DNA of 64,000 nt from Octopus vulgaris. Lineage: Eukaryota. The position numbers and the translations under genes are program-made. A model generated the notes under the pieces. The model was given only the letters and a program-made list of their open reading frames with translations. It did not search any database and was not told where the DNA came from. The stretch is taken from the NCBI GenBank assembly GCA_951406725.2, contig OX597825.1, positions 68,572,001-68,636,000 of the forward strand, in the 5' to 3' direction. Below, one piece after another: positions 26,070 through 63,869 of this stretch; position 1 is the first letter of the stretch; the number at the start of each line of letters is the position of its first letter.

Positions 26070-28531
26070 ATGTCTTTTCATCTTATGTCACTTCCATCCA
26101 TGTCTTTTGGTCTGATGTCTTTTTGTCCGATGATTTTTTTTTGTCCAACAACTTTCTGTCCAATTTTAATTAAACTCTTTAGAAAACAGGGTGAAATATC
26201 TCTAATGATATATTCACAGAACTATAACGAGTCAGAGTCATGTTATAGGTTTGTTATTGTTTGTTTTCTTTCTCTGTTAACAGTTTTACTTTCTCCTTTT
26301 CCTTCTTTCTCTTAAGTATGGTGCTGTGTAAAGAGAGTGCTGCAAATTTAGTGTACACATTTTTAATTTACTCATCCCGAAATGACAAAGTTCATAGTAT
26401 TGACCAATAACAAAATAAAAGTAGTGGATGAAAGTAATTACGTCTACGTTAGGAAGGGCATCCTGGCAATAGGAAGGGCATCCAGCTGTAGAAACTGTGC
26501 CAGATCAAGATTGGTGCCTGGTGCAGCCATCTGGTTCGCCAGCCCTCAGTCAAATCGTCCAGCCCGTGCTAGCATGGAAAGTGGACATTAAACGATGATG
26601 ATGATTTTCATTCAAGCAATGCAAATCTAGGAAAGGAATACTGGAGATGTAAGAAAAGAAGGCTATGTTCAGTGTGAATTCTCACCGTAATAGAAAACAA
26701 TGAGCTGAAAATTATTTATTTTTCTAGTGAGCTGCACCTTCATCCAGCTGATGCAGATTCGTTAAGTGCTAGAAAAGCAGTTGCAGAAATAAAGCATGAA
26801 GTGGCGGAAAACATAGCAGCAAGTTCGTGTAAGTTTATGCAGCTGACAGAAAATACTTGCTCTCAATTTCCTCATTTGCCTGTATTTTCTAGGACTATTC
26901 AAAGGTGCTGACAAAGAAAAAAAAAAAATTCCAGAGGCTAGAACTCGTTTTGAAATACCTGAAGAATATTGTAAACTTGATAATGGCGAGCAGTTTCTGG
27001 GATACAATTCGGGTATCGAGGATGAACAGCGCATACTAGTATTTGCATCAGAAAGTGCTCTTCAGGATATAGCATCATATTGTCATTGAGCATGTGATGG
27101 AATGTTTAAAATTGTGCCAGAATAGTGGTTTCAACTGTTAAGCATTCATGCACAAGTTAAAGGTAGCAGTTTTCCAAAGGCTGCGAGCTGGCAGAAACGT
27201 TAGCATGCCGGGCGAAATGCATAACCGTATTTTGTCTGTCGTTACGTTCTGAGTTCAAATTCTGCCGAGGTTGACTTTGCCTTTCATTCTTTTGGGGTCG
27301 ATAAATAAAGTACCAGTTTCGCACTGGGGTTGATGTAATCGACTTAATCCCTTTGTCTGTCCTTGTTTGTCCCCTCTATGTTTAGCCCCTTGTAGGCAGT
27401 AAAGAAATATATAGCATCATATTTTCATTGGGCATGTGGTGGAACATTAAAAATTGTGCCAGAACAATGGTTTCAACTGCTAAACATGCATGCACAGGTT
27501 AAAGGTAGCAGTTTTCCAAGAGTCTTTGCATTACTGCCGAATAAAAAAAAGCAGACCTACAAATTACTTTTCGAGCAATTGAAAATTATGCCACCTAATG
27601 CATATCCACTTGATCCCATGGCAGATTTAGAAGTTGCAGTTCACAAGGCATTTAATTCATCATTCCCTAACTCATCTATTGTAGCATGTTTGTTTCATTT
27701 GTGCCAATCAGTATTTCGAAAGTAACAGATTTAGGCCTCAAAGAAAAATACAATAAAGACCCTGAATTCTGTCTTAAAATTCAACTTTTTCGGTTTTTCA
27801 GCATTAGCCTTCTTACCTGTTGAAGATGTCAGAGAGACCTATGAAGAATTAATAGACAATGAAGAACTACCTGCTGAATTCATCGCTTACTCTACCTTGA
27901 CTTACATAGGTGTTGTGAGAGGATGTGGTGCTAGATGAAGGAGAGAACCACCTACTTTTTCAATAGCTGTATGAAATGTTAATCAGTGTATTCTTCAAGA
28001 TTTTCCCAAAACCAAATAATGCTGCAGAGGGGTTTCCTTCTGTGATAAAGTGTTCGGTGGGTGGAGCACATTTGAATATTTGGAAATTAATCAAAACTCT
28101 GAAGGAAGAGGAAGGGTTTGTTCAAGGTAAAATGATACAAATTCTTCGAGGATATCTGTCAAATTCATGTGACGATATTGAAGAATAACTGAATACCTCA
28201 AAATATTGGTCACTGAATATGGGTCAACAAGAAAAATTGATTTTTTTGAAGAGTGTGGCATATAATTTGCATCAATTTTAAGTCATTGTAATAAATCATT
28301 AGTTATATCTTATTAAGTTTTTAAAATGACATTTTTTAAAACTACATTTTTCCACAATATTTTATTTGAATCCTATCAATAAAATTCTCATTTTTGATTT
28401 TCACGTTCACCTTGTTTTCTAAAGAGTTTATTTAAAATTGGACAAAAAAGCGTTGGACAAAAAAAAAATCATTAGACAAAAAGTTGCTGGACCAAAAGAC
28501 ATGGATGAAGTGATGTTGGATAAAGTGACAT
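26070..28531 (+). mobile_element. Mutator-like (MULE) DNA transposon, about 2.5 kb, with decayed transposase and two nested retroelements
   Basis: Inverted termini of about 130 bp (26070-26195 and 28405-28531) with ttttgtcc repeats. Transposase motifs DG.FK.VP.QWFQL..H, FALLPNKKKQTY, DLEVAV..AF...FP....ACLFHLCQ, NNAAEG. Confidence 0.88.
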
Positions 28532-38681: not shown

Positions 38682-39654
38682 AGATGCCTCCTTAACACTC
38701 TCCCTCAATAGACATTTCTCTCTCTATTTTTTTCTTATTGCTGTGTATTTGTGTCTTGTTTATTAATTTATTCTCTACCACTGCCCTTCTCTCCTATCAC
38801 ACTAGACACGTATAATAATGATAATAATTGTTATCAGTTAATTCATGTTTATCATTCTGAAGGAGAATATTTTTTTTTTGCTTTATAAATTTCTTTATTA
38901 ATTCTAGTTATTTTTTTTCCTAAATGTAATTATTCTAAAACCTTTTCCTTCACCACTCTACCCTTCTTTTTTTTTTCTTTTGGGGGTCTGATCACTGACT
39001 CTTTCTTCTCTTCTCTATCTCCCTTTTTGTCTTTCTCTCTCTCCTTATTTACCTCTCACTTTCTCTTTCTCCCTTTCTGCTTCTCTTCCTTTTTTTTCTT
39101 CTTCTCCCACTCTGCCTCCCTTTCTCTCTCTGATTCTCCTCTTCTCTCTCTGCCTCCCTTTCTCTCTCTGATTCTCCTCTTCTCTCATCTCTCTCCTCCT
39201 TACCCCCTCCCTCAGACGTCATTCGTCCTTGACAATTATCTGTGACACGGATACCTTCGCCTTGTTCCTATTTTCACATTCAAAAAACACATAAAAACCC
39301 CCAAAACCCAATAAATTCCATTTTCAAAACTATCACAAATTATTCTTTTTTCAAAATCATTAGATGTTATTACGTATTTACATATAAACTGATGAGATTC
39401 TGTGGTGTTCATGCTTTGTTTCCTCAAGGACATTTGCAATATTTTAATTTTCTCATAATATATGAACAATTTTTTTTTTTCATTTTTCAAAGAAATTCTC
39501 GAAATTTAAAATAGCTAATATACATAATATATATATTTAAGAATGAAAAATCATAATGTAAATTCAGTTGGCCGAGCACTGATCTCTACTTTGTTAGTGT
39601 CCAAATATATTTTATATATAGCATGAAATATTTAATTAAATATGGTAAAGCTTG

Positions 39655-39971
39655 TCGGTGCCGGATTTAGGCATATAAGGCTAAATCTTAGGACTTAGAT
39701 CCTTAGGGGCTTGGAAATATGTCGTTAATTGAGACTTAGTGTAAGTTTTAGGTGGGGTGCTGTGAAGTTAAGGCCTCATCGACTCATAAAGCGCCGAATT
39801 TAGACATAAAGGCCGGAAAACTCTGGCCCGAGGGCCTCACATTGTGCAGGGTGGGGGACCCTGAAAATAGCTAAATAGCATATTTCTTGTCATTTAATTA
39901 AAGACGATCGAAATCCTTGCAGGCTTTGTTATATCGAAGGACGACGTCACAGACACTAAATCCGGCACCGA
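39655..39971. mobile_element. hAT-like MITE
   Basis: Perfect 16-bp inverted termini TCGGTGCCGGATTTAG and CTAAATCCGGCACCGA. No clear TSD. Confidence 0.7.
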
Positions 39972-40759
39972 TTCTGCACATAATAATTACATCAAATATG
40001 CTTGACATACATGTTAATTAGTATATTTTATTTTATACTTAAATTTTAACGAGCTTAATTATGTATTCTTCTAGCCCTGAAATTAATTTGCAATCGCAAT
40101 AAGTTCAGTTTATTAATGAGAGTTTAAATGATAACGGTAATGTTGGTTTTAAATGCGTGGAAGGTGTAAAATTCGTATTGATATAATGTCGAAGTGTGTA
40201 TAAACCTATTTCCACCTATTGAAAAAAAATCCTTTGTCTGGCAATATTTATATATTACATATGTGTAGTCATTGCTTTCTCCATTAAACTTTGATTAATC
40301 TCTGCCACTCTTTAAATAAGAGAGAGAAGGGCGTTTTTTCTCCTTCTTATTTCTCAAAGTAGGCCGACCGACCGACCATTAATTAAACCGACCAAGATCA
40401 TAAGGAATAATTAAACAAAGGATCTTTTGTTAGTTTTTCGCACTTCTTCATTGTTACAGCATTGATATATTTGTTCTGTGATATTTATTGCCTGTTATAG
40501 TCATTGTTCTGTTTCCTCTTTTCCTTGTATTTTCCCTCCCAATCCCTGCTAACTTGTCACGTACTCATCCACACCTTTTAATAATGGCGTGTTCTCACTC
40601 TTTTCAATACTACGTTGCAAGTTCGTTTCTATTATATTAACGGCGTTGATTATTCAATCCTAACCTTTTTTTCTTCTGTCTTCACCTAACTAATCAGCTA
40701 ATTTCTTTTTTAATTGTAAAAAATTCAGATAAAAATTAATAAAAACGGCCTAGGATGTG

Positions 40760-41262
40760 ATATGACCTTGAGTGCTTGGGGTGAAGGTCATATGGCGGTC
40801 GTTTGTTTTTCCTTTTTTTTTTTTCTAGTCAAATTTGCTGCACCCATTTTCTTCTAAAATTCCTCTTTTCTTTATTGTATGGCTTTTTCCTTTATTATAT
40901 TTATAGCCAATATTACTTACAGCCAGTATTTTTTTTTCTCTTTTTTGAAGCCTGGTAGAAATTAGTGTATAAGATGTATACCATTCTCAAGGACATTTAG
41001 CTAGCGACGTCATGCAAAAGAGGAGGCTGGCTTTTAAAACATGGTCTCCGTGCCTGCCAAAAATAGCAGTCAAATTTCCTTATCACATTGTTAAAATAAA
41101 AAATTAAAGAACACGTAAGATAAGGCCATCTTAGATGCACCTAAGATGGCATATCCTTCGGTAGGAACATCTTCGATGGTACTTTCGCTTGATCAGCACT
41201 GCTATGGAGCGGGTTTGATCGGTGGAAATGATTCGATGAAGTTCATGCCTTTCTCAAGGTCA
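40760..41262. promoter_or_regulatory. Cluster of three TNAAGGTCA nuclear-receptor (ERR/NR5A-type) sites
   Basis: TGACCTTGA at 40763-40771, TGAAGGTCA at 40782-40790, TCAAGGTCA at 41254-41262. Confidence 0.4.
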
Positions 41263-41872
41263 CCAAGCTATGTCGAGGCGATCTCGAAGTTGATGAAATT
41301 TAGAGATTTGTCTGATGGTTTGTTAATTGTTATATATAAACGTGGGAATTTTCCTATAGGTGCAGCAGCAATGTTTTAATATATTTCTATCTGGGGAAAG
41401 TTTTTGCTCACATGATCAAGCAACCGTAGAATATCTTGGAAATGAAATAAAAATTTGTTATCCATAATCTTCATTTCAATTTTAAAAGCTTATTTATTTA
41501 TGCTGTATATATAGAGAAACTGTTTTCACGAAGCTTGTCGGGTGGTTTAAGTATTCTTTTTTCAGACAATCGCTTGTCAAACATTAATTTTGTCGAATGT
41601 CCAACGAATGTTTGCATCAAACTTGTAATTTTATTTATCTCCTTATACTTAGCTTAGTTTTTTAAATATTTATCTTCATACCTTAAATTCATAAATTAAA
41701 TCTCATGCAATAATATATTCGTGATTCCGCCGAGGTCGACTTTGCCTTTCATCCTTTCGGGGTCGATAAATAAAGTACCAGTTTCGCACTGGGGGTCGAT
41801 GTAATCGACTTAATCCCTTTGTCTGTCCTTGTTTGTCCCCTCTAAGTTTAGCCCCTTGTGGGCAATAAAGAA

Positions 41873-41905
<33 letters not shown>

Positions 41906-44900
41906 TGTATGTGTGCGCGGTTGTGCTTCTAGATTCTCCTATTCCATTCGATTTCAGATGTATCAAGTTTTGCTCTCCATCTCTCTAAATTTCATTTAGC
42001 ATCTGTTAAATTTAAATTTCTTTTATTCGTTCTCACACACACTGGGGGAAAAAGTACTCAATACCGTTAAAATAACGTTCAGTCTCTGCTTTGAATACAT
42101 GTCTTCATTTCATGTTTTGCCATTTTCATCTAATATGGTAATTCTTAGAACTTGATTTTCTCCTTCATCCACCCGTCTATCTGTTTTCTTTCTCCCCCGC
42201 ACTCTAAAGTCTGCCACTTATTTTTTTTCTTTTCATCCTAACATCGTTAATTTATTCTCTATCTCCTCATCACCACCCCCCCGCTTCTCTGTACATCGTC
42301 TTATTTCCTCACTATATCTTTCCCCCCACCCTGATTGAGCTTCTCAAATTTCCTCTACATGTACTACCGATAGGGTGGCAAAGATTTGAGATGGTTAAGT
42401 AGAGAAAACAGCTTCTTCCCTGTTTTAGCTATCTTGTAATAGTGTCAAACTCTCCTTAACCTGCTTTAGTTTTAAAAATCTTCGAGGGCTACGTGGACAC
42501 GACTCAAATACCCCTCCGTTACGTTTCCGTAGACAGCTGGACTAGCTCTTGGTCTTATACTTTGACCACAAAGAGATCAATATTAGCAGCAATGCTCGAG
42601 AGATTCAAGCATTTGCATCTGCTTTTATTTTAATCGAAAGCTGGAACTGTCTACTGCTTACTCTCTTTTTATCTCTATTTGTTGTGTGTGTGTATAGCAG
42701 CCACTTTTTTTTTCTCTACCTCTATGCACTTTTCATCTTACCCCTTTCTTGCATTCGTTCTCTCTAAATCTGCCTGTCTATCTACTCCATCCTACCTTTT
42801 TCTTTGACTGTTTGTTCGTCTGCCTCTTCATTTAAACTGTCACCCTCTTTTTGCAGACTCTTTTGTGACGTACTCCTTTCACCATCCCTGCTTTTCTTTG
42901 TCCTACACACACACCATATTAAATGCATATCCTATATTTTTTTCACATTTCCTTCCCTTTAACTTTGCACACCTGCCCCTTGCTTTGTTTTCTTTTCCCC
43001 CTTATCCCTTTCCCTCTTTCACTTCACTGGATCAAAAGACTGGTCCTTGCTTTTCCTTATTCATTTTCACAGTTTCATCTCTCGATACTGAGACTTTTCA
43101 GAGAACAGCCAAAGAAGTTATGGCAAGATGCTAGGGCCGGTTGAATGAAACGAATCTAGGCCATGTACTTTTACAGGGCTCATTTGTTCAGAACCTTATT
43201 GTTTGGGGGGAGAAGAGGAGAGGAGAATTAATGCCTCTTCTTGTTTGACTAGTTTGATGCTAAAAAAAATATGCATATATGTAAATACAATATTCTAGTT
43301 GTGCTAACATGGAAAGAAAATTAGCAAGTTTTCTATTGTTTTTTTTTTCTTTGTGTATGCCACATCTTCAAAAAGTACCGAAAAATTAAAACCTGAAATG
43401 AAAGCGTCTAGGTACTGACAGTGTCCACGTTTAGTGAACATAATCCTTTTTTTTATTGAAGTGCTGATATTTATATATTGATGGCTGTGAGGTTGTCTGA
43501 CAGGGATTAAATAGCATCATTAATTTGTATACATGAGCTTTAAAGGCCATTATTTGAAGATCTGCTAATTAGCTGATATTAATTATGGGGAGTTGGGGTT
43601 GAATTTATGGTAGTCGTTTAGCCACAGTTCATCTCTGATCAAGTTGACCCACGTCACAAATGTAGGTTCAACGACCAGGTGTCATCCAGATATTTGTTGC
43701 AGATCACTGGTGAACAGTCTATAGATCAGTGTGTCAATTTTTGTTTCTTTAATAATCCTGTTATTAGTGTATCATATATACATTTTTATTTTAGATAAGT
43801 GATATATAATCTGTTCGAAATCTTTTTTCCTTCCAAAGTCCAGTGTCATCTAAAAACCTTCAGGGTGTCACTGATCTTTGTATCACAGGTTTACCATTAC
43901 TGCCCTTGATACACCATATCTCTGCCAAGTTAAGGACCAAACTGTGCACTCCATCATGTAGTCAGCTTTTATGTGGTGTAGCGTCGGTCTGAGAATGTTC
44001 CGATTTTTTTTCTTTTTTTTTTCCATTTTTGTCTGTAGATTGTGAGTTTTATTTTGGCCAAATTAATTTTGATGTTAGCTGGAGTAAGAGGGAGAAGTCA
44101 AGGAGAATTATCACTCGTGTTGGTGATTGATTTAATGTAGGCTGTAAGGGTGCACATTGGAATTGTGTAATGCTTTATAAAAGTAAGTTCTAATTATGTC
44201 AGCTGTTGGGTTTCATACGGGATGTGTATTGTGATCATGAGAAACATTGCGGCCAAGTGAACTGACCCCAACCCCTTGCAAAGAGAACAAATAAAATGAA
44301 AACTAAAGCAATCATATTGCCCAAAAGATCGATCAGTCTATTTCAGTCATACAGTATTTTGGCTAGACCTGTTTTATTGTCATAGTGTAATAGATTAGTG
44401 AGATGGTATAGTGCATGACAGTTACAGATTTGAGATGAAGTAATGATATAGGGTCATTTAGAAAACTGGACATTTGAGCAGAGGCAATATTCCTGGTCCA
44501 GCCCTTGGTAAAATGAATTCAATGTGTTTTTTTTTTAAATTCTTTTTTGATAATTTTTTTCTGTATGCTGTATCTTAGTTGAACAATCCACTTGTTAGCC
44601 TTATCTAATGCTTCTAAGCATTTCAACATTTTGCTTAGAGTGACTAATAAACTGTTTCATTAGTAATACTGACCTCTTGCATGTCCGTTATATCTTTCTT
44701 GCAACTAGTGTCTTTATAGTAGCAAAACTTGCTAGATGTTGTAACCAAGACTCACCCGAGTCGCACTCATCCATTTTAACCCCATAACATCGGCTGACGT
44801 AAATTTATGTGTGCTGTAAACTCACTCTGAATCGGATGATAAATACACGCAGCCCTATCTGCTGTGGTTTTGTACCTGTTTGTTTACAAGTTGATATAGA

Positions 44901-46813
44901 TATCCGCTATCACTCACGGAATTGATAACAGAAGCCACTGTGCAAATTTCAAGGAATCTGATAGGTTTGTTAGATTCCTGTAAATATTTCCAACCCAGTT
45001 CGAGACTTCATTACCATAATAGTATAAAAGCAGCAGTTTTGGCGGTTACACCATGACTTCCTATCATATTTGTACACGTTCAGCAAATTCTTCTGGTCCT
45101 TTACAGAATTTATAATTGCATCCAGCTATGCCAGTTTTGTTGAATTTACGGTCCTTGCAGCGATGACACTTTACATAAATGAACAGTGCATGCTTTAAAG
45201 CAGTTGATGTAAAATATACACTGAACTGTTGTGTGCTAATTGCTGATTTTGGCCAAGATGATTATCATAAGTGCAACCCTTTGTCATGGGGTTAAAAAAA
45301 GAAAAAAATGAAGGGCATTTTAGAATAAGTTGTAGAAACTCCTATGGACTGGTTGAATGGTCATAGCTTGAATGCTTTTGATCATAGATTTGCATGGCAG
45401 TAAACAATAGCCTTGTTCCCTAATTGTAGAGGGAGCATGTGGAAGGGGTAGACCCAAGAAGATGTAGGACAAAGTGGTGAGAAAGAAAGGGTCTACAGAC
45501 TTTGGGACTAACAGAAGGGATGGCAGGGGACTGAGACTCCTGATAGTTTGCTATGCTTGAAAAGGCACTTCAAGCTAAGTAAAAGCAAGCTTGGTTGCCC
45601 TTGCATACAGGCTCCAGCTGAGCATCCCTAATCTTGTGGGCTCATAGGTGCTGCATAAAAGAACCCCTTATACTAAAGTGGTTGCTGTTAGGAAGGGCAA
45701 CCAGACATGGAACCTGAACAGCTGTTTAGCTAGTCAGCTCCTGTTCAACCCATGCCAGCATAGAAAATGAACATTGAATGATGATGACGGTTTAAGATGA
45801 AGTATTTTTCATCAGTTTATTTGTAAACGAGTACTACAAATGCCATAGCAATGTTGTCTTCTCAAGAGGCAATTGATAGGTCAGTAGTTAATGGTCTTTT
45901 ATTCTAACTGGTATTTGGTTGTGTAAATTCTTACAAAAAATATTGTAGCAACTTTATGTAAATGAGGCAAAATATGAGAAAATTATGTGAAAATTCCAAC
46001 TGCATGGAGTCGATATTCTTTTTGATACTGAGGACCTTTCACATTTTTCAACGAAGGAGCTGTGCTTGCAGATGTTGTGGTTTGTTGCACTGTCTTGGTG
46101 TTAGATTTTTCATTGTTCTCTTGTAATAAATATTGACTTTTACTTCGGTCTTAGCTTTCTGGTTCTATCAAAACCAGTCTCGTGGTGAGGATCAAACTGA
46201 TGGATAAATTACACACCATATTATCTTTACATTCAAAACGAACCTAGACTCTTTCAGGGACAATAAAACAAAAAAGCCAGAAGTAAAAATAAACTTTTGA
46301 AAACTCCAACCTAACAAAGACTTGAATTTCACAGATAAAACGAATTCATCAAAATATTTTATTCAGGAGAGACATAGGGTAAATCTTGATCTCCCACAAC
46401 TTTTTTGTTTTGGCAAACAAAAGATTTATTTTAGAAACTTTTTTTCTAAAAGTGTTATTAGTCAGTATGACAAATGTCAGTCATTTAATTGTTGAATTGG
46501 TCTGAATAATGTAAATTATGAAATTGTTTGTGGTGGTTATTAATTACATAATTGCTTGCTGCATGAGACTGATAGATTGGTAGCATTCATTAACTGTTGG
46601 TTTGCATAGTTACTTATGCTACATATACAGCAGCCTGATATTGTAATTAACACTATTTGGTGTATATAGTCCCTTGTTAATTTACTAGACTTAAAAAAAT
46701 ATTAAACTCATATTGACAATTTGTAGTTGCATTCTTAAACTCTTACCTAATCAGTACTGGTGAGAAATTAACCGTCTTAAGCCAACTTAGCCGAATCGTT
46801 TCCAGTGGCTACC

Positions 46814-46924
46814 ATGGCAGCACTTGATCCAGCTCTCCTGCAGACAATAAAAACTGTTGTTTCGGAAGAAGTTAACCGTGCAGTCGAACCTCTGAGACAA
46901 GAGCTAAATCGTCTGCGAAGCAAG
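46814..46924 (+). CDS. Candidate alternative upstream coding exon of GAPDH (37 aa, MAALDPALLQTIKTVVSEEVNRAVEPLRQELNRLRSK)
   Basis: Strong Kozak context accATGG, 111 nt with no stop, coding-like composition, phase-0 donor AAG/GTAAAA. In frame with the GAPDH exon starting at 57530. Confidence 0.65.
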
Positions 46925-48054
46925 GTAAAAACTACATTTGATGTAGATCAAAACATTATCTGTATAAAGTGAGTACGCATATATATATACATATATATAG
47001 GTAGTAACTTGTCTTCTAAGACTTGATTATTGTTAATTATGAGTTATATAAATTAGCCTTACATTTGTTTTGTGATTGTGAGTGAGGCATGCTGTTCTTT
47101 TGCCTTGGTCTATTTGACTGGCAAAAGATTCCACATTCACCACAAGCTTCAACCAATTCATGATTGGAAAGGCATACATGCAGCCAAACACTGTTGTTAA
47201 ATAAGCCAAGGTTCATGTGAAGTACATGGAAGATTTTGGCAAATGCCACATGCTTACTCCTCGTCTTCACATGTTTTAAAAATTTGTGTTCTGAAGAGGT
47301 GACTGACAGTTCTGTTGCAATGGATGCTCTATTTTATCTAGTTTGATACTGCACTATTCCGAGTTCAAATTGCACTAGTGGTGACTCTCCTCTTTCTGTG
47401 ATTGAAAACCTATCATTCATTATCTAATTTGGCCTCCTACAGGATTTGGCTCCATATCTATTTAAATAAGCCTATTGAGTAATTACCATGTCCTTTTAAA
47501 ATCTTGACACATTTTTGTTTTGATGCAATCTTGTAAATTCTTTATTTCTCAAAGTGTCTCTACGAGAAGAATCTTATCAAGAGTAACTCTTGTCTGTAAC
47601 TGTTCGTCACAGAAAGGAGATGTCCCATTGTTCCTTTTCCCATTTCACTTTGGTGTTTCTGGTTAAATCGAATCCATTGCAGTGTCACACAGCACAAGTG
47701 TTCTCATTGTGGCTCTTTATGAATTTTCTGTAAATAGTGTTCATGTTATTTTCAATCCTTCAATTGAATTAAAAAGTAATAAAAGAAAAAAAAAATGAAC
47801 CAGCATATTGCTTTTGAATTAACCAAAATTTTAATGTGGATGGTATTGGATATAAGTATCAATTTAAAACAAAAGAGCAACAATCCTCACCCGAAAGAGC
47901 AGTTTAGTTCACATACTTGCTATAAAAGTATCATTTTTTTCAAGTAATTGAAAATAAAGTATCAGCAATATCTAGAATATAGAAGGTTAGTCTTAGTTTG
48001 CTGGTGTTCTTACCAGGCGAGTGTTTTGATCCGAGACTGTTGAAACTAAAATGA

Positions 48055-48584
48055 TTTAGTTAGTTAGTTAATTATTTGGCTCAAAAAGCAAGGCCATGTA
48101 GGGGGACATGAAGTTATGTACAGGGTGGTGTTCATGTAAAGAGTTCAGGCCACTTGTGGTCAAGGGAGACTTTGAACCGAGTGGTCGTTGGCATCTTCAC
48201 TATCTCGTCCGGCAGCTTATTCCACGGATCCGCAACCCGGACGGAGAGAGCCCCTCTCCTTCGATTGAGATAAAATCGTCGCAGATAGAGCTTTTCAGAG
48301 TGACCCTGCAGCCGACGCTCTGGAGCAGGAGTGAAGAACAGCTCTTTTGAGAGGTTACACTTTCCGCTTATGATGTTGTGAGCAAGAATGAGATCACCAC
48401 GGTGTCGTCGTTTTTCTAGAGAATAAAGGTCGAGTGTCTTCAGCCCTTCTTCATAAGACAAATGCTTGAGACCAAGAACCATGCGGGTAGCCAGCTTTTG
48501 GACTCTTTCGAGATGCTGTATGTCTTTGAGGAGATAAGAAGAGCCTTGAATCCCGTACTCCAATTTGCAGTATGGAAGAGACAT
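48055..48584 (-). mobile_element. 5'-truncated CR1-clade LINE (RT C-terminus, 3' UTR and (TAAC)n tail)
   Basis: Reads KLEY...DIQHLERVQKLATRMV.GLKHLSYEE.L..L.LYSLEKRR.RGDLI...RV...WNKLP. Tail ttagttagttag at about 48056. Confidence 0.92.
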
Positions 48585-50889
48585 GATGGATGCATAAAGA
48601 CTAACAGTATTAATTTCACTTAAACATTTGTTACATGGTTATATTGCATGTATTGTAACCAGGTCACTGTTCAAGCAACACAAATTTGACATGACAGATG
48701 TTTGTGAAATTAAGTCTGTATTTTTGAATAGCTTATAGGCCTTTTTGTGCTCTAATAATTTTTAGCCTCTTGATTTTTGTCAATAAAATAGATTTTTTTT
48801 GTTGAAATTGTGTAAATTGCAAGCAGTAGCATAACCAGTTGTAGGTTTCCAATTGATCACTGGTGCATTATTCTTCAATGGCGAGTGATGTCAAAATGTC
48901 TTTGTAACTCGGGATAGAATAAATACCACAAGGTGTTTTGCATGTCCCATGTTAATCCGTTTTCTTGTCAATGTATATATTCCACTGGTATGCAACAGGC
49001 TTCCACACTATTCCTACAAACCAAATTCCACTGGTAGGCATTGGTTAAGCTGAGGCACTTGTCCGACCTGAGGTGCTGTATAGTAGAACTGAACCCAGAA
49101 ATTATCATCATTGTTTAACGTCCGTTTTCCAGGCTAGCATGGGTTGGACGGTTCAACCGGGGTCTGAGAAGCCAGAAGGCTGCACCAGTCTGATCTGGCA
49201 GTGTTTCTACAGGTGGATGCCCTTCCTGACGCCAACCACTCCATGAGTGTAGTGGGTACTTTTAAGGTCTTGTAGAGAAGAAAATTGCTCTTTACATAGG
49301 ATCATCATCACTTTGTCTATTGATTGGGACCAGTTGTTCCACCTGGGACAACTGACAGATACTCTTTTACTTGTTTCAGTCATTTGACTGCGGCCATGCT
49401 GGAGCACCGCCTTTTAGTCGAGCAAATCGACCCCGGGACTTATTCTTTGTAAGCCCAGTACTTATTCTATCGGTCTCTTTTGCCAAACCGCTAAGTGACG
49501 GGGGCGTAAACACACCAAGCAATGCTAGGGGGACAAACACAAACACATACACACACACATATATATATAAATATATACGACGGGCTTCTTTCAGTTTCCA
49601 AATCCACTCACAAGGCATTGGTCGGCCCGGGGCTATAGCAGAAGACGCTTGCCCAAGATGCCATGCAGTGGGACTGAACCCGGAACCATGTGGTTGGTAA
49701 GCAAGCTACTTACCACACAGCCACTCAAACCTTGTTTTCAAGTCAGAATAGAAAATAAAATGAAACTTGTTTTCTGTATGATTTTAAGATGGTTATTGGT
49801 TTCAGTGATTCACATAGACTTTAAGCTAACGTTCTTACATCATCCAGTTGTAAATTATAATAAATTAATATTATATAGTACGTATGGAGTGTACTGAGGA
49901 AATCCGGATTTTTAGTGCTGAACCAAATAACACCATGATGTCATTGCTATCCAAAGTTACCTCCCTTCTCTCAGTTTCCCAATTTGATGGCTGCTAAATG
50001 TATTATGGCTGAGTTGTCGACATATTGTATCATGGCTTAAAAGACGCACGAGCATATTAGATGCAACTATTATTTCAGCAGTGCATTTTTAGGTGGGGAG
50101 TAGGGAAAGAGTTTAATGCATCAAAGCCTAAAAGGATAGGCTTCTTAATTTCTGGCCTCATACCTAAATCAGAAATCACAATTTGTATCAAGTGCAAGTT
50201 AATGCATTGATAAATGTAGGCGGGGGTCACCTGCTTAAACATTATTCAGAATGTGTATTAGTAATTAAACACACATTTTAACAGGGAATTTAGTAACTGA
50301 ATGAGTACTCAATACTAGGTATAAAGTACATTAGCTCTTGTTGCCAGTCTTAGATCTCCTTAAGTAGAGTTGGTCTACTGACATTCTTTGACAGCTGGAT
50401 CTCTGGCTGTAAGCCAGGATATAGGTACATATATAGATATAGCTGTTTGGTTTTGACAAGCCATTGCAACTACCTACTCAGTGTGAATGTTGAGTATGGG
50501 ACTGACAACTGCACACTAATTACAGGTTTGGTTCATCTGGTGGTCTGTCATACAGTGTCTTCCCAGTTTCACTTGCAAGGCTTTTTTTTTTGTTGAATTG
50601 GGAACGTGGCAGAAAAAAAACTCTTGCAGCCTGGATTGATCTCAGAATCATGTACACAAAAAAAACAAAAACAAAAAAAAAAAACACTTGTGTTCCATAT
50701 ATACTGTATCTTTTCTCTTTACTTGTGTCTTGGGATTGCAGCCATGCTGATGCACCCACCTGGAAGGGTTCAGTTCAATAAATCAACCCCAGTACTTTTT
50801 TAATGTCTGGTACTTATTCCATCAGATTCTCGTTAAATTACTAAGTGATAAGGACATAAGCAAAACAATACCGATTGTGAAGTGATGGT

Positions 50890-50931
<42 letters not shown>

Positions 50932-52576
50932 CTTCTTTCAGTTTCTGTCTTCCAAATCTACTCAAGTTTTTGGTTGGCTCAGGGCTATAGTAGAAGACAC
51001 TAGCTCAAGGTGCCATGCAGTGGCACTGTAACTTTGGTTGAGTAACACAGCCATACCTGCTCCTTTATATACTTATACACCAATACAATAGATCGGATTT
51101 TCTCCTAAACATGAAAATTTAATTTCTTATGTTGCTAACAGATGTTTTCCTTCTCCAACTAAGTAGTAGATTTCAGTTGAGGATTCTTTGCATGTCATAT
51201 CCACTACCACCCAAATTTGTGTGTGTATTTTCTAGAATATAAACCGGATGTCTTTGAAAATATTTTAATGTTAAAAGGTGTGGTTGAAGGAACCCATGTA
51301 TTACATTTACATTGTCCATTCTGATGTGATTTGAAATCAGAACCAGTTCCTTTTTAAACTTTAATAATTTTCCATTGCTTTGAATGAGAGCAGATTAGCT
51401 GCTGATAAAGATATATCCTGCTGAAGAACTTTTTAATGATTCTCAAAGGTAGATGGTTAGCTCAATCCAAATAGGCTGGATGGTCAATAACTAAAATTTA
51501 ATATTGGTTAGATGTAATTTATAGACCTGTATCATCATTGTTTAACATCCATTTGAGACAGTAAACTCCAACAGATCCACTAATATAGCTAAATCTGTCT
51601 CAGTTGTCAAGTGTCAACATTATCAATTATGTAGAAAACCTGGTATGACTTCTGATTAACTACAATAAGGTTTTGCAATTTTGACTTTGTTTTAAAGTAA
51701 CTTGTTGAGTTACATAAGATAGGCCTTGGCTAAAAATACGTGAGGTTATTGCTCTCTTTTGTTTTAAACTGTTGTTTGTAAGGTCCGGTACCATTTACAC
51801 TAAAATACAGGCAGTTAAGTGTGTTTTAAGTGTATTTTTTTAATGTATGGAATGTCTCATAGTTTGATACTTATCACACTTGCACTGTTCATGTTGAGTG
51901 ACCTTATTTTTTGCTAAGGTATCTGGACAAAAACCAGCCAGTGAAATTGTACCTGTGGTAGGTATCTGCAATGAATTGCCGAGTTTCTAGATGAAATAAA
52001 AACTGCATGCTGGTTTGAAATGTCTGAGTTAAATGTAGCAACAAGCTTTTATAATACATAACACCTGTAGTTGTGGGAAGCACTTCTATGGTGTACTTGG
52101 GATCTTGTGGCTGACAAGCTTTAAATTGTAGCTTATTTGACTTTCTGGTCTGCTAATTTTAAAATTAAATCTTAATTTAGGTAGATTTCCCTTTCATAAA
52201 CAATAATCAAGGATGGAGCAAAATCCCTGTATTCTGTCTAGTCTGTGAATTGGTTCTTTCATAATGCTATCACTTTCTTCACTGTTGCACTTGTCTTAAT
52301 TTTCTGTGTTTCCTTTCTAAGGGAGGGACTGTTATTGTCAGTATGGAGGTACTTTTCCAATATGTTTCCTTAAACAACTGAATTAAAAGCTATGAAATCT
52401 TTTTAGCAATAATTTTTACTCCATTTCACCCTCATAAACCAAACTCCAAATTGTTTATAGTTTTGTGATGTCCATGTTAGGTTTACCTCGCTGTTAAAAT
52501 TTATATTTATCAAGCTTGAATCAGTCTGTTAAACTGATCAGTCTTCTGATGCTGACTTTGCATTTAGTATAAACCA

Positions 52577-52615
<39 letters not shown>

Positions 52616-53547
52616 TCTAGAAGGTAGCTGTTCTCAGAATGGGTAGAATGTTAGACAAAATGCCATGCTATTTGGTTCTCATATCTGAGTTCGATTCCTA
52701 TCCTGTTCGACTATTGATGATGTCAGTGTCCTGACAAGGCTAGTAATTAAAACAAATAAGAGAAAATGAGTTGAAAAATGGAGAAAGCAGCAATGGACTA
52801 CTCATAAGTTAATGCCCCTACCCTTGGGAATCATAGAAACATTTTTTAGCACTTTTGGTTCTATTTGATACGTGTAATTTTTTCATGTAACATTATGATG
52901 CTTTATTACTGCTATATTTTAATGTTTCTCTATTGGCCATTCTAACATAATTGTTACCCTTCTTTGTTGCCATGAAGCGAAACAACCTACTCAATATAAC
53001 AACTATCTCTCTCTCATCGTCTTAGTGACTGTGCCATGTTGTTTCTGGAAGGTAGAAAAAATCCTTAACTGGATTGCATCTGAACAGGAAACATTAAAAT
53101 GTTGAACACTGTAAAATTAAAATGATCAAATTTCTATGTATATAAGCCCCTCCCCCCACTACCATAAGCATTCTAACATGTAGATCAGTGATACACATGG
53201 AAGGGCTTAAACACAAACAAAAGTAAACAGTCTTAATTGAAGAAACCTTTATGGCCAAAGTTTAAGACTATTGTACATCTGAGAGCTAGAGAAGCTATTT
53301 GGTGCACTTGCAATGTCTTTCTGTATCTTGTTTTCAGAATGTTCTAGATATAGTGTTACCATTTCAAGAATATCCTCTCCTTACTGGAATATATATATAT
53401 TAAATGCTGATATTGGGGGTTGTTATATGCCTTGACCCGAGCATAGAACAGGGCTCGCTTCTTTGAGTTGGGATATGAATGGAATACCTGGTGTGTCTTG
53501 TGGCTACTCCCCTCCTAAAAAATGGGGAATAGGCCTGGGAATATAAA

Positions 53548-53581
<34 letters not shown>

Positions 53582-56500
53582 GACAAAATTAGGCATGTAA
53601 GCTTAGGACATAGGATGAATTTTTATTCCTCATTCTTTTGCACATATACAGCATTTTCTTAAAAATTCATTGCAGTTATACTTAGGCTTATCTAAGTTTA
53701 ATAATTTCCGAAAAACATTTGCATAAATTTATTTTGGTTTGAATTTATGTTGAACCATCTGGGATAATTTTGGGGAGCAACAATTCTTGGTGAATCATTT
53801 CCTGAAGATTGGTCAAATTGAGCTTCATGAATATTTACCAAAATAATTAAAAATAGAATTTTACTCTTAAAAGTTTTTTTCCCCGAGAACACATCCCTAT
53901 ATATTTTTTTTCCTCCTAAACACTTTCCTCCTCAAAATCAGGATAACTTTGTCCTGTTTGAGAAATGAGCCACAGGAGATGGGACAGCTGATGCAGCAAG
54001 TGCTGCTGGTCATTCTCTGTGGTGATGGCCTTTGCAATCTTGTTCATGAGGTGCGACTGAATACCCCATTTGATCTCGTGTGTACAATGCATTACTCCCT
54101 TACCCCGTCTTCTGCTACTTAATCCCCTACTTTTTCTTTATTTCCTAGCCGAGGTAAAGTTTTTTTTTTTTTTTCTTTTCTCAGTAATTTGATCTATACT
54201 TTTAAAGTTTTTTCTTTTTGTAAAAAACGGTTAAAGCCATATATACTGAAAAAAAAAAAAAATTTACTTGATTACTTTAAAATTATTCTCATATTTATTG
54301 TTACTTGAGAGCTTGTTCTGTTCGGTGCCAACAAGAAACTTCAGAAACAGCAACAATATTCTGTATCTCTCTCTTAAAAACTACATTCATCTGCAGTATT
54401 TCAACCACAAACATGCAAAATTGTGGCCTGCACTTTCACTTAAATTCAGATATGACCTTTACGTATAAGATATAATTGTAAGCTAGACTTATAACTAAAT
54501 TTTACCTTTTCCATGCAAGCATTATTAAAACTGTTTAATATTTGGGCACTAATAATTGTTTTATTTTAAATCTTGAATGTTTTTTTTCCTGTTGCATGTG
54601 TAATTTATTGACACCATATCTCTTAGTATACTCTTTTACTTGTTTCAGTCATTTTGACTGTGGCCATGCTGGAGCGCCGCCTTTAGTCGAGCAAATCTTT
54701 GTAAGCCTAGTACTTATTCCATCGGTCGCTTTTGCCGAACCGCTAAGTTACGGGGACATAAACATACCAGCATCGGTTGTCAAGTGATGTTGCGGGGACA
54801 CGCACACACGCACACACATATATACATATATACGACGGGCTTTCAATTTCCTTCTACCAAATCCACTCACAAGGCTTTGGTCGGCTTGAGGCTATAGTAG
54901 AAGACACTTGCCCAAGGTGCCATGCAGTGGGACTGAACCCAGAACCATGTGGTTGGTAAGCAAGCTACTTACCACACAGCCATATATATATATATGCTTT
55001 GTTAATGTTAGATTTTTCTAAAGTCTGAGAGTTGCTAAGCTGGTATATTGATGTATAAAAATCACGTTCAAAAATCTGTAAACATGTTATTGGATTTTTA
55101 AACATCAGTGGCTCCTGTATTATAAAATCTAAAACACATTGCTTTTTAATTTGTATTCATTTTCTAACTTGACATTTTCCTGTTTTTAATGTTCACTATA
55201 TTAAATTTAATAGCTGTGTGTGTACAGAAAAGTGAAGTGAAAACTATGGGCAGTTGATACACTTGAGAAAGTACAGTCATTGAAATTATTTCTTAAATGA
55301 AAGCTTACAAGGCCAAACCTATATGAATCACTTAATGTTTAACCTTTTTCCTGCATTGTTAAATTTTAGAAGTGATTCAGTCAAAGTGTTATAACACTTT
55401 GACCAGCTCAATCCTAGATGAGGATTTTGCTAATTACGAAAACCAGTCTTTTCTTCCAATCTTGCTGGAATGTATTGTTCCCTTGAGTTCAATAACACTG
55501 CTGAAATAGGAATTCAGCATTTAACTGAAATTTAAAATTGCAAAAAAAAAAAAAAAAAAAAAGCACTATAGTTGGTTTTGTTCATAGTTTCAAAAATTGA
55601 TTAGACGTATGATGGTGTTTGTGGGAATCGGTAAATAATGTAAACAGGGAGATTCTTACATTTAGTTGGATAATTTTTGTATTTTAAAAATGAAATTGCA
55701 ATGACACCATTGATAAAAAAAATTATGAAATTATTGTATACAGTGCTCAGGTGCACCACAACTTGTCAAAAAGTGCACATAGTATATGCAGTAATGTACA
55801 AATGTCTGGACGGCGATATGCTGATAAGCTTCAGGTTTTAGTTTTTTTTTGTCTTTATTTTCAATTTGAAACTATTTCACTTCACTTTATTTATACTAAT
55901 GCTTATGACGAAAGGCATGAATACCACAATCTTTCATTCCATTTTCAGAAACTTATTTTAACTTTAAATGTTTGGAGCTGTTGGTTTCCTGATCTAAAAT
56001 TTGTAACAAGACTTACGTTTTGGTTGTTTGTTTGCTTCTTTTGAGCTTCCTGAATTGAAATTTCATTAAAAAGTGTTTGTGTGAAGTTGGAGTTTATTAG
56101 TTGTGCATGTTCTGTTAAAAAGAAAAATCCATCTCAACTCTGTTGCTATCAAATAAAATTGCGTTTCATTATTGAAGTTATTACATGTTTGTTCAGGTGT
56201 TTTTGTGGCTTGTATTTTCTTGAAAATGTATGTAAAGTTTTTTTTTTTTATTTAAATTTTAGAAAATCTGCCAAGAAACCCGAGAATACCATCAAAACAT
56301 AGTTGGGGCCTTGAAGGGTGTTTAGCTAAAATATAAGCACTGGGATCAATTTGTTCAAAGTTTGGCACTTTTCTATTGGGTTTCTTTTGCTAAACTTCTA
56401 AGTTATGAGGATGTAAATAAACCAACACAAGTTGTCAAGCTGTGGGTGGGGGAAAATGCATGCATGTGCGCACGGATTCTTTCAGCCTCCTCTCTACCAG

Positions 56501-56827
56501 ATCTTCAGGGTTATAATAGAGGACTCTTTTCGCATATGCCGGGTAGTCGGACTTGAAACTACATGGCTGAGAAGTTAACTTTTTTACAACATGGCCATAC
56601 TTGTAACTATGGTCAAAATTTTTGACCCTTAATCACTCTGCTTTTACAGCTACTTGTTGGATTGATTCTGGCAATAGATATGGATTTTTGGGCTGTCGAT
56701 GCCACTTGTAAATTATGCACTCAGGAAAGTTTGAACAAGAAAAAATATCAAATGACAGCATTATCTAAATTTAATTTACCACTGCATTGATTAGATTTTA
56801 ACTCTGATTTGATTTTTGATGATCAAT

Positions 56828-57183
56828 CGAAATCAATCAACATCAATGGAAATTGTAGCTGTGATACCAGTGCCTGGGGCACGTAAGAGAACCATCCGAA
56901 CGGGGCCGTTGCCAGCGCCGCCCCGACTGGCCTCCGTGCCGGTTGCACATAAACAGCACCATCTGACTGTGGCCGTTTGCCAGCCTCGTCTGGCACCTGT
57001 GTCGGTGGCACATAAAAAGCATCCACTACACTCATGGAGTGGTTGGCATTAGGAAGGGCATCCAACCGTAGAAACATTGCCAGATCAGACTCGGCCTGGT
57101 GCAGCCTTCTGGCTTCCCAGACCCCAGTTGAACCGTCCAACCCATGCTAGCATGGAAAGTGGACGCTAAACGTTGATGATGAT
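56828..57183 (+). mobile_element. Family-C RTE-tailed element flanked by a 53-bp direct repeat
   Basis: Shared family tail. Flanks 56775-56827 and 57184-57236 differ at one base. Confidence 0.85.
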
Positions 57184-57541
57184 TTTACCACTGCATTGAT
57201 TAGATTTTAACTCTGATTTGATTTTTGGTGATCAATAGTTAAAAAAAAAAAAAAGTTAGATATATTTACTTTGACTCCCTTTACTTTCCAGAAAGAATTA
57301 GCTTTTTTGCATATGCATGTACGCACATGCATGCATGTGCGTGCATGCATATGCGCACATACGTGTGTATGTACGGGCATGTGTGCTCATGTACACAAGT
57401 CTATTTTGAGTGAATACAAATAAAAGCCTTTTACAAAGACAATGATAATCTTTTGTTTCACATGTACTAATTTTGAAACACTAATGATATATTTAAAAAT
57501 ATTAATTTATATTTTCTTGTTTCTTCCAGTCTGTAAACAAG

Positions 57542-57570
57542 ATGGGTCAACATAACATTGGTATTAATGG
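57542..57570 (+). CDS. GAPDH: Glyceraldehyde-3-phosphate dehydrogenase, first canonical coding exon (exon starts at 57530)
   Basis: Acceptor tttcttccAG at 57528-57529, then aagATGG. Reads MGQHNIGING. Donor GG/GTAAGT. Confidence 0.93.
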
Positions 57571-60762: not shown

Positions 60763-60972
<210 letters not shown>

Positions 60973-61489
60973 TGATCACGTTTACCACTGGGTAATTAGT
61001 TAATGAATTCTTGATACAATAGATAGCCCTAGTGTTTTTCGTAAATGGGCCATTGTTTTATCTTGTTGTTTTGGTCATTGGAACGTGGCCATGCTGGGGC
61101 CTTGAAAGATTTACTTGAACAAATTGATCCCAGTACTTTTTAAGTCTTGTCATTTTTGTCAGACTAAATTATGGGGACATAAACAAACCAGCACTAGTTG
61201 TCAAGCATTGGTATAACATGTGCATGTGCTCTCACATGTGCTCATTGCATGCACATGTGGTCACATGCGTGCACATGCTACTAAATTCATTCGAGGCATT
61301 GTCCAGCCTGGGATTACAAGTAGATGCTTGTTGAAGGTGCTGTGCAGTGGAACTGAACCTGAAACCATGTGCTTGTAAAAGCGAGCTTCTATACCACACA
61401 TCCATCCCTGCTCCACAAAAGTACATCGCATCAACTGAGAAACAAACCTGGGCTGCCTGCATGGCAAGTGAGCATTCTTCTCCGCACTG

Positions 61490-62355
61490 CACCGCACACA
61501 CACACATGCACCGCGCACACACACACACACGCACGTACGCACCACACACACACACGCACAGCACCGCACACACACACACATGCACCGCACCGCACACACA
61601 CGCACCGCACCGCACACGCACCGCACCGCACACGCACCGCACACACCTCACACGCACACCTCGCAAGCACGCACACCTCGCAAGCACACACACCTCGCAA
61701 GCACACACACCTCGCAAGCACACACACCTCGCAAGCACACACACCTCGCAAGCACACACACCTCGCGCACACACACCTCGCGCACACACACCTCGCGCGC
61801 ACACACCTCGCGCGCACACACCTCGCGCACACACACACCTCGCGCGCACACACACCTCGCGCGCACACACACCTCGCGCGCACACACACCTCGCGCGCAC
61901 ACACACCTCGCGCGCACACACACCTCGCGCGCACACACACCTCGCGCACACACACCTCGCGCACACACACTACACCACATACACTACACCACACCACACG
62001 CACACACCACACGCACACACCACCACCACACACCAACACCACGCACACACCACCAGCACACACGCACACACCACAAGCACACACACCACGCACACACCAC
62101 CACCACACACACACGCACACACCACACGCACACACCACACACACACACCACACGCACACACCACACGCACACACCACACGCACGCACACCACACGCACGC
62201 ACACCACACGCACGCGCACACACCACACGCACACACCACACGCACACACCACACGCACACACCACACGCACACCACACGCACACACCACACGCACACACC
62301 ACACGCACACACGCACACACACACACACACACATACACACACATACACACACATA
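61490..62355. repeat. Large evolving CA-rich compound satellite in a GAPDH intron
   Basis: Successive units gcacc(gca), cacacacacctcgcaag, cacacacacctcgcgcg, cacacaccacacg. Confidence 0.95.

Positions 62356-63179: not shown

Positions 63180-63293
<114 letters not shown>

Positions 63294-63740: not shown

Positions 63741-63869
<129 letters not shown>

Follow-up and report, generated by a model that had tools for sequence, protein, structure and literature searches.

How glycolytic enzymes are kept where ATP is in high demand is an open question; the described cases mostly amount to weak, diffuse binding. In Drosophila, a short C-terminal tail present in one splice form of GPDH has a role in their co-localisation, a case in which isoform choice puts glycolytic enzymes on a structure. 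In the flight muscle, the enzymes co-localise at Z-discs and M-lines (PMC4192631). A closer parallel to the gene analyzed here is GAPD-2 of the lizard Anolis carolinensis. Its description (PMC3224139) reports an ATG-bearing cassette exon that is retained in testis and skipped elsewhere. The N-terminal domain is linked to testis, repetitive and rich in proline, and part of it evolves without constraint (Ka/Ks up to 1.1); the GAPD-2 duplication is dated there to early chordates. The extension of GAPD-2 and of mammalian GAPDHS is regarded as an anchor for the enzyme. A structural parallel is the tetramerisation domain of VASP, reportedly (Kuhnel, 2004) a right-handed coiled coil built on a 15-residue repeat.

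We analyzed a window of 64,000 nucleotides of Octopus vulgaris DNA (contig OX597825.1, positions 68,572,001 to 68,636,000, forward strand), which contains an optional GAPDH exon coding for a 37-residue N-terminal tag. As in GAPD-2, one locus codes for an extended and a plain enzyme by means of an optional ATG-bearing 5' exon. A sequence-only reading of the window had set the octopus gene against vertebrates, where the anchor sits on a separate paralogue; this contrast is weaker than claimed, since the lizard gene, as described in that source, is a published single-locus precedent. The differences lie elsewhere. The octopus tag, by prediction an amphipathic helix, is under constraint, comes with a linker microexon of its own and is found in a coleoid clade, whereas GAPD-2 is a chordate paralogue. 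Unlike the proline-rich domain of GAPDHS, the tag has only two prolines in 37 residues (four in the 54 residues of tag and long linker). We infer that the octopus tag and the lizard cassette exon are convergent, not homologous. In contrast to the Drosophila GPDH tail, the octopus module is predicted to be folded, is N-terminal and is part of GAPDH itself.

The tag exon and its gene

The enzyme encoded at the locus belongs to the class I GAPDHs (PF00044, E 1.9e-36; PF02800, E 8.7e-71), and the motif SCTTNC, presumably the GAPDH active-site motif with the catalytic cysteine, is present in the protein P0001. The common GAPDH exon (57530..57570; all exons and splice sites are on the plus strand) starts with 12 in-frame nucleotides, followed at 57542 by the ATG of the untagged 335-residue form. 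Exon mapping placed further coding exons at 60864..60960, 63186..63292 and 63755..63845, while six more lie outside the window and reach about 9.1 kb beyond its end. The protein CAI9731264.1, which includes the linker microexon, maps to 12 exons, all with GT-AG boundaries, over a gene of 26 kb; because this entry is probably an annotation of the same genome, it is not independent support. The main promoter region is likely at 39500..42000 (no strand assigned), judging from the lack of CpG depletion (observed/expected 0.7-1.1, compared with mostly <0.6 downstream).

The coding part of the tag exon occupies 46814..46924. The ATG context (accATGG at 46814), the 37 open codons and the phase-0 boundary AAG/GTAAAA at 46924/46925 were all confirmed, and the acceptor before 57530 is followed by TCT GTA AAC AAG ATG as proposed. 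Joining 46924 to 57530 is stop-free and yields exactly the N-terminus of RefSeq XP_029643400.1 and XP_052828151.1 (isoform X2), with the 41-residue extension proposed earlier. The exon is therefore not hidden, as had been thought: it is a genuine coding exon but no discovery in itself, since automated RefSeq and GenBank models already had it. The bare pattern is not rare, with seven phase-0 GT[AG]A donors ending ATG-started open stretches of at least 30 codons between 42001 and 57500, and the case for the tag exon therefore depends on conservation.

The in-frame donor chosen in annotated isoforms (GTAAAA, 46925..46930) scores 2.8 bits and is surpassed by the out-of-frame donor AA/GTGAGT (46969..46974, 7.7 bits), which had been correctly noted. 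Use of the latter would create an upstream ORF of 53 or 66 codons, ending shortly 5' of the GAPDH ATG. The candidate acceptor ttccAG is present at 46804..46805 but weak (2.4 bits compared with 9.0-20.8 for 19 training acceptors). With an acceptor this weak, the exon may be an alternative first exon instead of a cassette. A DNA search of the genome matched only the exon itself, consistent with a single copy (the search tool warns that absence of matches is no proof of rarity). At the protein level, the tag has two matches in 2.8 Gb, the GAPDH exon and an ORF on another contig (C8). These counts speak against the multiple genomic copies that a repeat- or transposon-derived exon would have. Nine sampled words of the exon occur in 20 of 24 run rows (10 studies, seven organism codes), none recorded as RNA, which is evidence neither for nor against expression.

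The direct splice from 46924 to 57530 holds for X2; the main annotated form, X1, adds a 39-nt phase-0 microexon at 51919..51957, overlooked earlier, which lengthens the linker by 13 residues. The octopod-type Logan protein P0014 has the same microexon directly followed by the GAPDH exon. The N-terminus of P0014 matches, at six of seven residues, a reading of the intronic stretch immediately 5' of the microexon (51898..51918), and this stretch is likely conserved. The RefSeq X1, X2 and X3 proteins, all automated models, have 389, 376 and 335 residues in O. sinensis and 391, 378 and 337 in O. bimaculoides, X3 being untagged; X1 and X2 of both species carry a tag identical to that of the window. 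Calculated masses are 36.2 kDa without the tag, 40.8 kDa with the tag and a 4-residue linker, and 42.1 kDa with the tag and a 17-residue linker. These models and the exon mapping bear out the idea that optional 5' exons let a single locus code for GAPDH with and without the tag. The optional extension, as in the lizard, also appears in a cuttlefish-type cluster, where long and short forms coexist. The RefSeq entries and Sepia pharaonis CAE1257488.1 hold these same exons and proteins under automated names only, with no family, domain or function assigned to the extension.

A second, multi-exon GAPDH gene is located on contig C9 of the same genome, and no tag was detected in about 67 kb upstream of it (best E 3.5). 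In a tree without vertebrate sequences, the tagged genes form one clade (92/88) and the C9 paralogue falls outside. In practice, cephalopod 'GAPDH' covers two genes and no fewer than three isoforms, a point to bear in mind when it serves as a reference gene or is measured in proteomics.

At the protein level, GAPDH was named in 4-day O. vulgaris paralarvae in spot 1802, whose number is next to those of the actin spots (1827-1897), as well as in spots 2151/2166. If spot numbers run with size, as is usual for DeCyder, these spots would fit about 42 and 36 kDa. The hint is weak, since spot 1802 was identified from one peptide and the size order is broken by several spots of the table. Neither the main texts searched nor the supplements of two papers contained tag peptides. 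One paper names the protein XP_014791243.1, only as a SWATH match. Literature searches, with subscription papers such as Baibai 2010 (O. vulgaris GAPDH) and bioRxiv supplements outside their scope, returned no study of this extension or its helix.

Conservation and distribution of the tag

The frame of the tag is conserved across octopods and decapodiform-type sequences, in line with the sequence-only reading. Between the window and O. bimaculoides, the tag (37/37) and the linker (17/17) are identical at all 54 positions, compared with 301 of 335 (89.9%) in the enzyme body; an extension fully preserved between Octopus species whose bodies are 10% apart in protein identity is unlike the partly relaxed extension of GAPDHS/GAPD-2. 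In Sepia pharaonis CAE1257488.1 and four further cuttlefish- or squid-type sequences, 25-26 of the 37 tag residues are identical (68-70%), below the 73-81% of the body. The linkers of these GAPDHs have 16-18 residues and only 19-25% identity. Frame, length and hydrophobic register of the tag are kept across all distant homologues as the linker sequence drifts. Judged from these alignments, constraint acts on the sequence of the helix but only on the length of the long linker.

Contigs no longer than 2575 bases (P0019, P0020, P0022 and P0026) encode the tag and the whole enzyme in a single frame; since the octopus gene extends over 26 kb, they are likely spliced transcripts. Within the cuttlefish-type cluster, 47 contigs carry the long form (P0022) and three carry the short form (P0023); these are exact-match counts, which can mislead, and tissues are not given. 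A phmmer search of 1.84 billion representatives gave three matches at E ≤0.001, a tagged GAPDH and two repeat proteins that were discarded as unrelated. A profile search selected six of 1886 candidates, all of them tagged GAPDHs, and none of 80 metagenome GAPDH loci had the tag (best E 0.17). Overall, the phmmer, profile and metagenome searches, which are weak for short helices, detected no tag outside coleoid-type sequences.

Predicted structure of the tag

The hydrophobic positions had been listed correctly and follow a 3/4 spacing (3-4-4-4-3-4-3-4, mean 3.63), though not the plain heptad of a classical coiled coil. The best hydrophobic period is 3.69-3.75 in all five tags. AF2 predicted a single helix over residues 6-40, with pLDDT of 95-96 for residues 11-30 and a low-confidence linker; the full-length model (mean pLDDT 40.7) was too poor for placing the tag. 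A mitochondrial presequence was rejected on inspection, the tag having five acidic residues. Searches for known relatives gave only sub-cut-off matches in Pfam, a generic coiled coil as the best match among PDB sequences (E 0.018) and no matches with Foldseek. ESM Atlas scores of 0.75 and 0.80 are leads only.

When four copies of residues 1-45 were modeled together, the complex score was 0.43, compared with 0.00 for the best of three controls, with runs agreeing in at least 93% of contacts, partner pLDDT of 70 and in-register contacts. The peptide is thus predicted to be a self-associating helix, as suggested earlier, and specifically a parallel four-helix bundle. In calibration, 21 of 30 proteins that had been solved as pairs reached the score mark, as did none of 23 single chains; for eukaryotes, it was reached by 17 of 29 pairs (animals 7/16) and none of 30 single chains. 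This calibration was on pairs, unlike our four-copy job, and four was the sole stoichiometry run. Moreover, of seven eukaryotic pairs for which no older solved relative existed, only one passed the mark, and the predictor may recall side-by-side packing of amphipathic helices from its training memory. The predicted bundle would resemble the VASP domain in being short, parallel and four-helical, with a hydrophobic period near 3.75 and a linker to a functional domain. However, the 3-4-4-4 repeat occurs just once in the tag before a proline and a change to heptad spacing, and the tag sits on an enzyme that is already tetrameric. No homology to the VASP domain was detected in Pfam or among PDB sequences.

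Possible roles of the tagged enzyme

The explanation we favor, with moderate confidence, is that 46814-46924 is a real, conserved coding exon whose helix, by prediction one strand of a parallel bundle of four, would likely tether or cross-link GAPDH tetramers into a local ATP-supplying assembly. GAPDH is a D2 tetramer with its four N-termini pointing apart. Therefore, a parallel bundle would take its helices from different tetramers, almost certainly so with the short linker. According to gene models and homologues, the three isoforms are the untagged enzyme and the tag with either a 4- or a 17-residue linker. Self-association is predicted to be in register through I12, V16, V20, V24, L27, L31 and L34. 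Bundling between tetramers could produce clusters or a lattice, or attachment to a scaffold with a compatible helix; skipping the tag exon would leave a soluble enzyme, and the microexon would set tether length. If the tether reading is true, it would be an independent and structurally different solution to the role of amniote GAPDHS. The module on GAPDH is discrete, spliceable and conserved, and it occurs in animals whose muscle is very active and whose nervous systems are large. The tag can be deleted, mutated on one face or grafted elsewhere, making the metabolon idea directly testable.

An alternative we regard as unlikely, although it is the likeliest of the rivals, is that the helix, instead of self-assembling in cells, is a docking strip for another partner, be it a scaffold or the protein that would start with the C8 exon. 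Surface residues such as D5-P6, E18-E19 and P26 are invariant in four aligned tags, as in a binding face, and the C8 ORF (C8:21701511-21701726) is the one other tag match in 2.8 Gb, with octopus and squid-type queries both. It scores 25.6 bits with an octopus-free profile, compared with 9.1 for the next of 21,884 ORFs, and a GT is present at the matching register. Nevertheless, the self-association prediction passed its controls, the significance of this exon-like ORF is modest (genome-scale E 0.044), and it could be linked to no gene within 900 kb. Pfam gave nothing convincing for three sets of candidate exons from that region (41, 14 and 67 stretches, the last set drawn from the top 140 of 623 candidates), and no relatives were found in JGI contigs. 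Phosphoglycerate kinase (PGK), arginine kinase, aldolase, enolase and pyruvate kinase were considered as the C8 partner and rejected, as none of them maps to C8. More doubtful still is a coleoid 'zip-code' exon, in which the zipper would polymerise GAPDH into a lattice or condensate and co-assemble with the C8-helix protein, splicing acting as an on/off switch and the microexon setting mesh size.

A testis-only sperm-tail anchor, as in amniote GAPD-2/GAPDHS, is improbable. The layout is the same as that of Anolis GAPD-2 (PMC3224139), N-terminal extensions are a frequent gain among the glycolytic enzymes of sperm (PMC2881024) and mollusc sperm tails have glycogen regions, but most invertebrate axonemes are surrounded by membrane alone (PMC11276731 for both). 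In addition, 47 contigs for P0022 against three for P0023 are hard to reconcile with one tissue, insofar as such counts can be trusted, and the near-actin-size spot in paralarvae argues weakly in the same direction. We give equally little credence to four helices that hold a single tetramer together, or pack against the enzyme body, and so alter stability or kinetics instead of location: the four-copy prediction equals the enzyme's own stoichiometry and the length of the long linker is conserved, yet the four residues between helix and enzyme start in X2 are likely too few, given the dimensions of GAPDH, for gathering the four N-termini of a D2 tetramer. Finally, a mainly 5' regulatory exon or a neutral exonisation, with the tagged protein incidental, would suit the stronger out-of-frame donor and its upstream ORF, but is very improbable for a single-copy exon whose frame, length and register persist in every distant homologue.

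Tagged and untagged isoforms of octopus GAPDH

The sequence-only reading proposed that an upstream exon, with its ATG at 46814 and 37 open codons ending on AAG/GTAAAA at 46924, is spliced to a GAPDH exon with its acceptor before 57530 and 12 bases, in frame, ahead of an ATG at 57542. These positions are borne out, and the 46924 to 57530 join is free of stop codons. Searching with the exon retrieved a 389-aa Octopus vulgaris GAPDH (CAI9731264.1), probably the annotation of this very genome. Its 14-member cluster includes RefSeq isoforms X1, X2 and X3 of two Octopus species (389, 376 and 335 aa in O. sinensis; 391, 378 and 337 aa in O. bimaculoides). X2, in which a four-residue linker joins the 37-residue tag to the enzyme, corresponds to the proposed 41-residue extension; the exon is therefore not hidden, as tagged isoforms are already in automated annotation. 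X1 gains 13 residues from a 39-nt microexon (51919-51957), while X3 is untagged. The 389-aa form is encoded by 12 exons spread over 26 kb, each of them mapping with GT-AG boundaries. In P0014, an octopod-type record on a 1396-base contig, the microexon is joined to the enzyme and the N-terminus is a reading of the intron upstream of the microexon. The tag exon is almost certainly real and translated.

By itself, the ATG-to-donor pattern is weak evidence for an exon, as seven such stretches occur in 15.5 kb of the region. On a scale trained on sites of both GAPDH genes, the in-frame donor (2.8 bits) lies below all training donors (4.5-12.8), and the proposed tag-exon acceptor (2.4 bits) below all training acceptors (9.0-20.8). 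The sole genomic DNA match of the tag exon is itself, which argues against a multi-copy repeat. The alternative donor at 46969-46974 (+ strand) is indeed out of frame: its use leads to a stop after 53 codons, and the resulting upstream ORF ends only a few bases short of the GAPDH ATG, whether or not the microexon is included. This ORF could act as a translational control switch.

The computed masses are 42.1 kDa for the long form and 36.2 kDa for the untagged one. In the portion of a 2D-gel study of O. vulgaris paralarvae covered here (PMC5434110), GAPDH is named from one peptide in spot 1802, adjoining actin spots 1827-1897, and also in spots 2151/2166. These spots fit the two masses only if spot numbers track size, and several spots of the same table break size order; they give a weak hint of a somatic long form.

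Conservation and known systems

Between O. bimaculoides and O. vulgaris, identity is 37/37 in the tag, 17/17 in the linker and 301/335 in the body. Conservation of the peptide in other cephalopods was found as well: further searches placed the tag on a Sepia pharaonis GAPDH (CAE1257488.1) and on GAPDHs from Logan, MERC and JGI records. Compared with octopus, these are identical at 25-26 of 37 tag positions and 73-81% of the body; their linkers are 19-25% identical, yet always 16-18 residues long. Each distant tagged GAPDH sits complete on its contig, none of those with a stated length exceeding 2575 bases, and therefore likely comes from a spliced transcript. In a 14-row tree, which omits P0022 (the tagged record of the cuttlefish-type cluster) and P0025, tagged GAPDHs form a single clade (92/88), divided into octopods and a branch that includes Sepia. 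These two groups split about 270 million years ago. The cuttlefish-type cluster has 47 contigs with the long form versus 3 with the short form; the record P0024 is merely the long form shortened at its 5' end. No tag was found beyond the coleoid-type GAPDH clade by sequence searches, which are weak for short helices.

The closest precedent in the sources covered is lizard GAPD-2, where a single locus yields the enzyme with or without an extension through a cassette exon with an ATG (PMC3224139, in part), a layout like that of the octopus gene. Unlike GAPD-2 and GAPDHS as described there, the octopus tag is neither proline-rich nor relaxed in sequence and is therefore not classed as GAPDHS. No study of the extension was found in the openly accessible papers and preprint texts searched, and the covered part of bioRxiv 2026.09.05.749416 does not mention GAPDH. 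Coleoid GAPDH is a real isoform system, already in automated annotation and apparently unstudied.

Predicted structure and possible role of the tag

AF2 predicts a single helix over residues 6-40 (pLDDT 95-96 across 11-30) and a low-confidence linker; the full-length model gave no usable structure. The hydrophobic period is 3.69-3.75 in five of five tags. The earlier coiled-coil reading agrees with the predicted helix and parallel bundle. The core spacing (3-4-4-4-3-4-3-4) is not a plain heptad: one 15-residue repeat is followed by a proline, and heptads come after it. A four-copy prediction for residues 1-45 gives a bundle that is parallel and in register, its contacts falling at residues 12, 16, 20, 24, 27, 31 and 34. 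The score is 0.43 versus 0.00 for the best of three controls, runs share at least 93% of contacts, and partner pLDDT is 70. In calibration, 21 of 30 solved pairs passed the mark, compared with 0 of 23 single chains. For eukaryotes alone the figures were 17 of 29 pairs (animals, 7/16), none of 30 single chains and just 1 of 7 pairs lacking an older solved relative. These counts are only roughly valid for a four-copy job, and the prediction made no use of the alignment. The modelled bundle supports tag-tag binding, and we regard self-assembly as fairly probable. The predicted bundle resembles the VASP tetramerisation domain, with no sequence match; Pfam, PDB sequences, ESM Atlas and Foldseek returned no family, sequence or fold match to the tag.

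GAPDH is a homotetramer (PMC3224139, in part). A parallel four-helix bundle would require four chains leaving from one end. The tetramer has D2 symmetry, with N-termini on its outer surface. Since the X2 linker has four residues, the helices would hardly come from one tetramer; bundles would instead bridge tetramers, or attach them to a scaffold bearing a compatible helix. Including the microexon would make for a longer tether, in keeping with a linker kept in length and not in sequence, and skipping the tag exon would give soluble enzyme. Of the proposal that one locus makes plain and tethered GAPDH, the isoforms and their conservation are observed, while we infer the cross-linking, anchoring and tissue role. 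An exon supplying a self-assembling tether has, as a whole, somewhat better than an even chance.

Related and neighbouring sequences

Octopus and squid-type tag queries each gave one further genomic match, at G000:C8:21701625 (E 0.108 and 0.29). Here a frame on the + strand (G000:C8:21701511-21701726; L005:1387-1602) starts with ATG, runs for 72 codons and ends in a tag-like helix, followed by GTAATG in a register identical to that of the GAPDH tag donor. Against a profile without the octopus row it scores 25.6 bits (genome-scale E 0.044; runner-up 9.1), and its helix has a hydrophobic period of 3.72. Read through, the frame gives 87 aa, the last of them a short hydrophobic stretch encoded by a TTG-rich repeat; its codon score is slightly below zero and its donor score modest. 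Whether it is a true paralogous exon of the tag is about evenly balanced. A rough exon finder combined with Pfam revealed no partner gene in 900 kb; PGK, arginine kinase, aldolase, enolase and pyruvate kinase were rejected, as all five map elsewhere. The 900-kb stretch (G000:C8:21481601-22381600) is undepleted in CpG (0.6-1.3) and has no recognisable non-repeat exon; it reads either as a gene desert or as one giant intron within a tissue-specific gene.

A second multi-exon GAPDH (G000:C9:78907064-78934612, + strand; L114-L117) is about 71% identical, with largely shared intron positions. In the first coding exon of this gene the ATG is preceded by just 3 in-frame bases, and no tag was found in about 67 kb upstream. 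A broken intronless copy (G000:C1:126476909-126477774) and a fragment (G000:C25:29914187-29914369) lie on the - strand. Located 3' of the tagged gene, a short degenerate exon copy (G000:C12:68672663-68672743, + strand) likely explains why the 481-aa model CAI9731263.1 has an unusual C-terminus.

Within the window, a large last exon (1647-3002, - strand) encodes a UBZ zinc finger (PF18439, E 3.3e-12) and presumably belongs to a polymerase of the Y family, Pol eta for example, and 27396-27725 (+ strand) is what remains of a MULE transposase (PF10551, E 1.3e-8). An ORF in the intron that follows the tag exon resembles by eye a LINE reverse transcriptase end (48132-48638, - strand; no Pfam match at E 0.01), and another GAPDH intron contains a compound CA/CG-rich tandem repeat (61480-62350). 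Elsewhere, an intronless 357-aa phosphagen-kinase frame (G000:C7:108646812-108647420, - strand), an intron-poor aldolase copy (G000:C9:97224218-97225403, + strand) and a facing pair of pyruvate kinase genes (G000:C18:65095723-65136674) are possible tissue-specific duplicates of energy enzymes.
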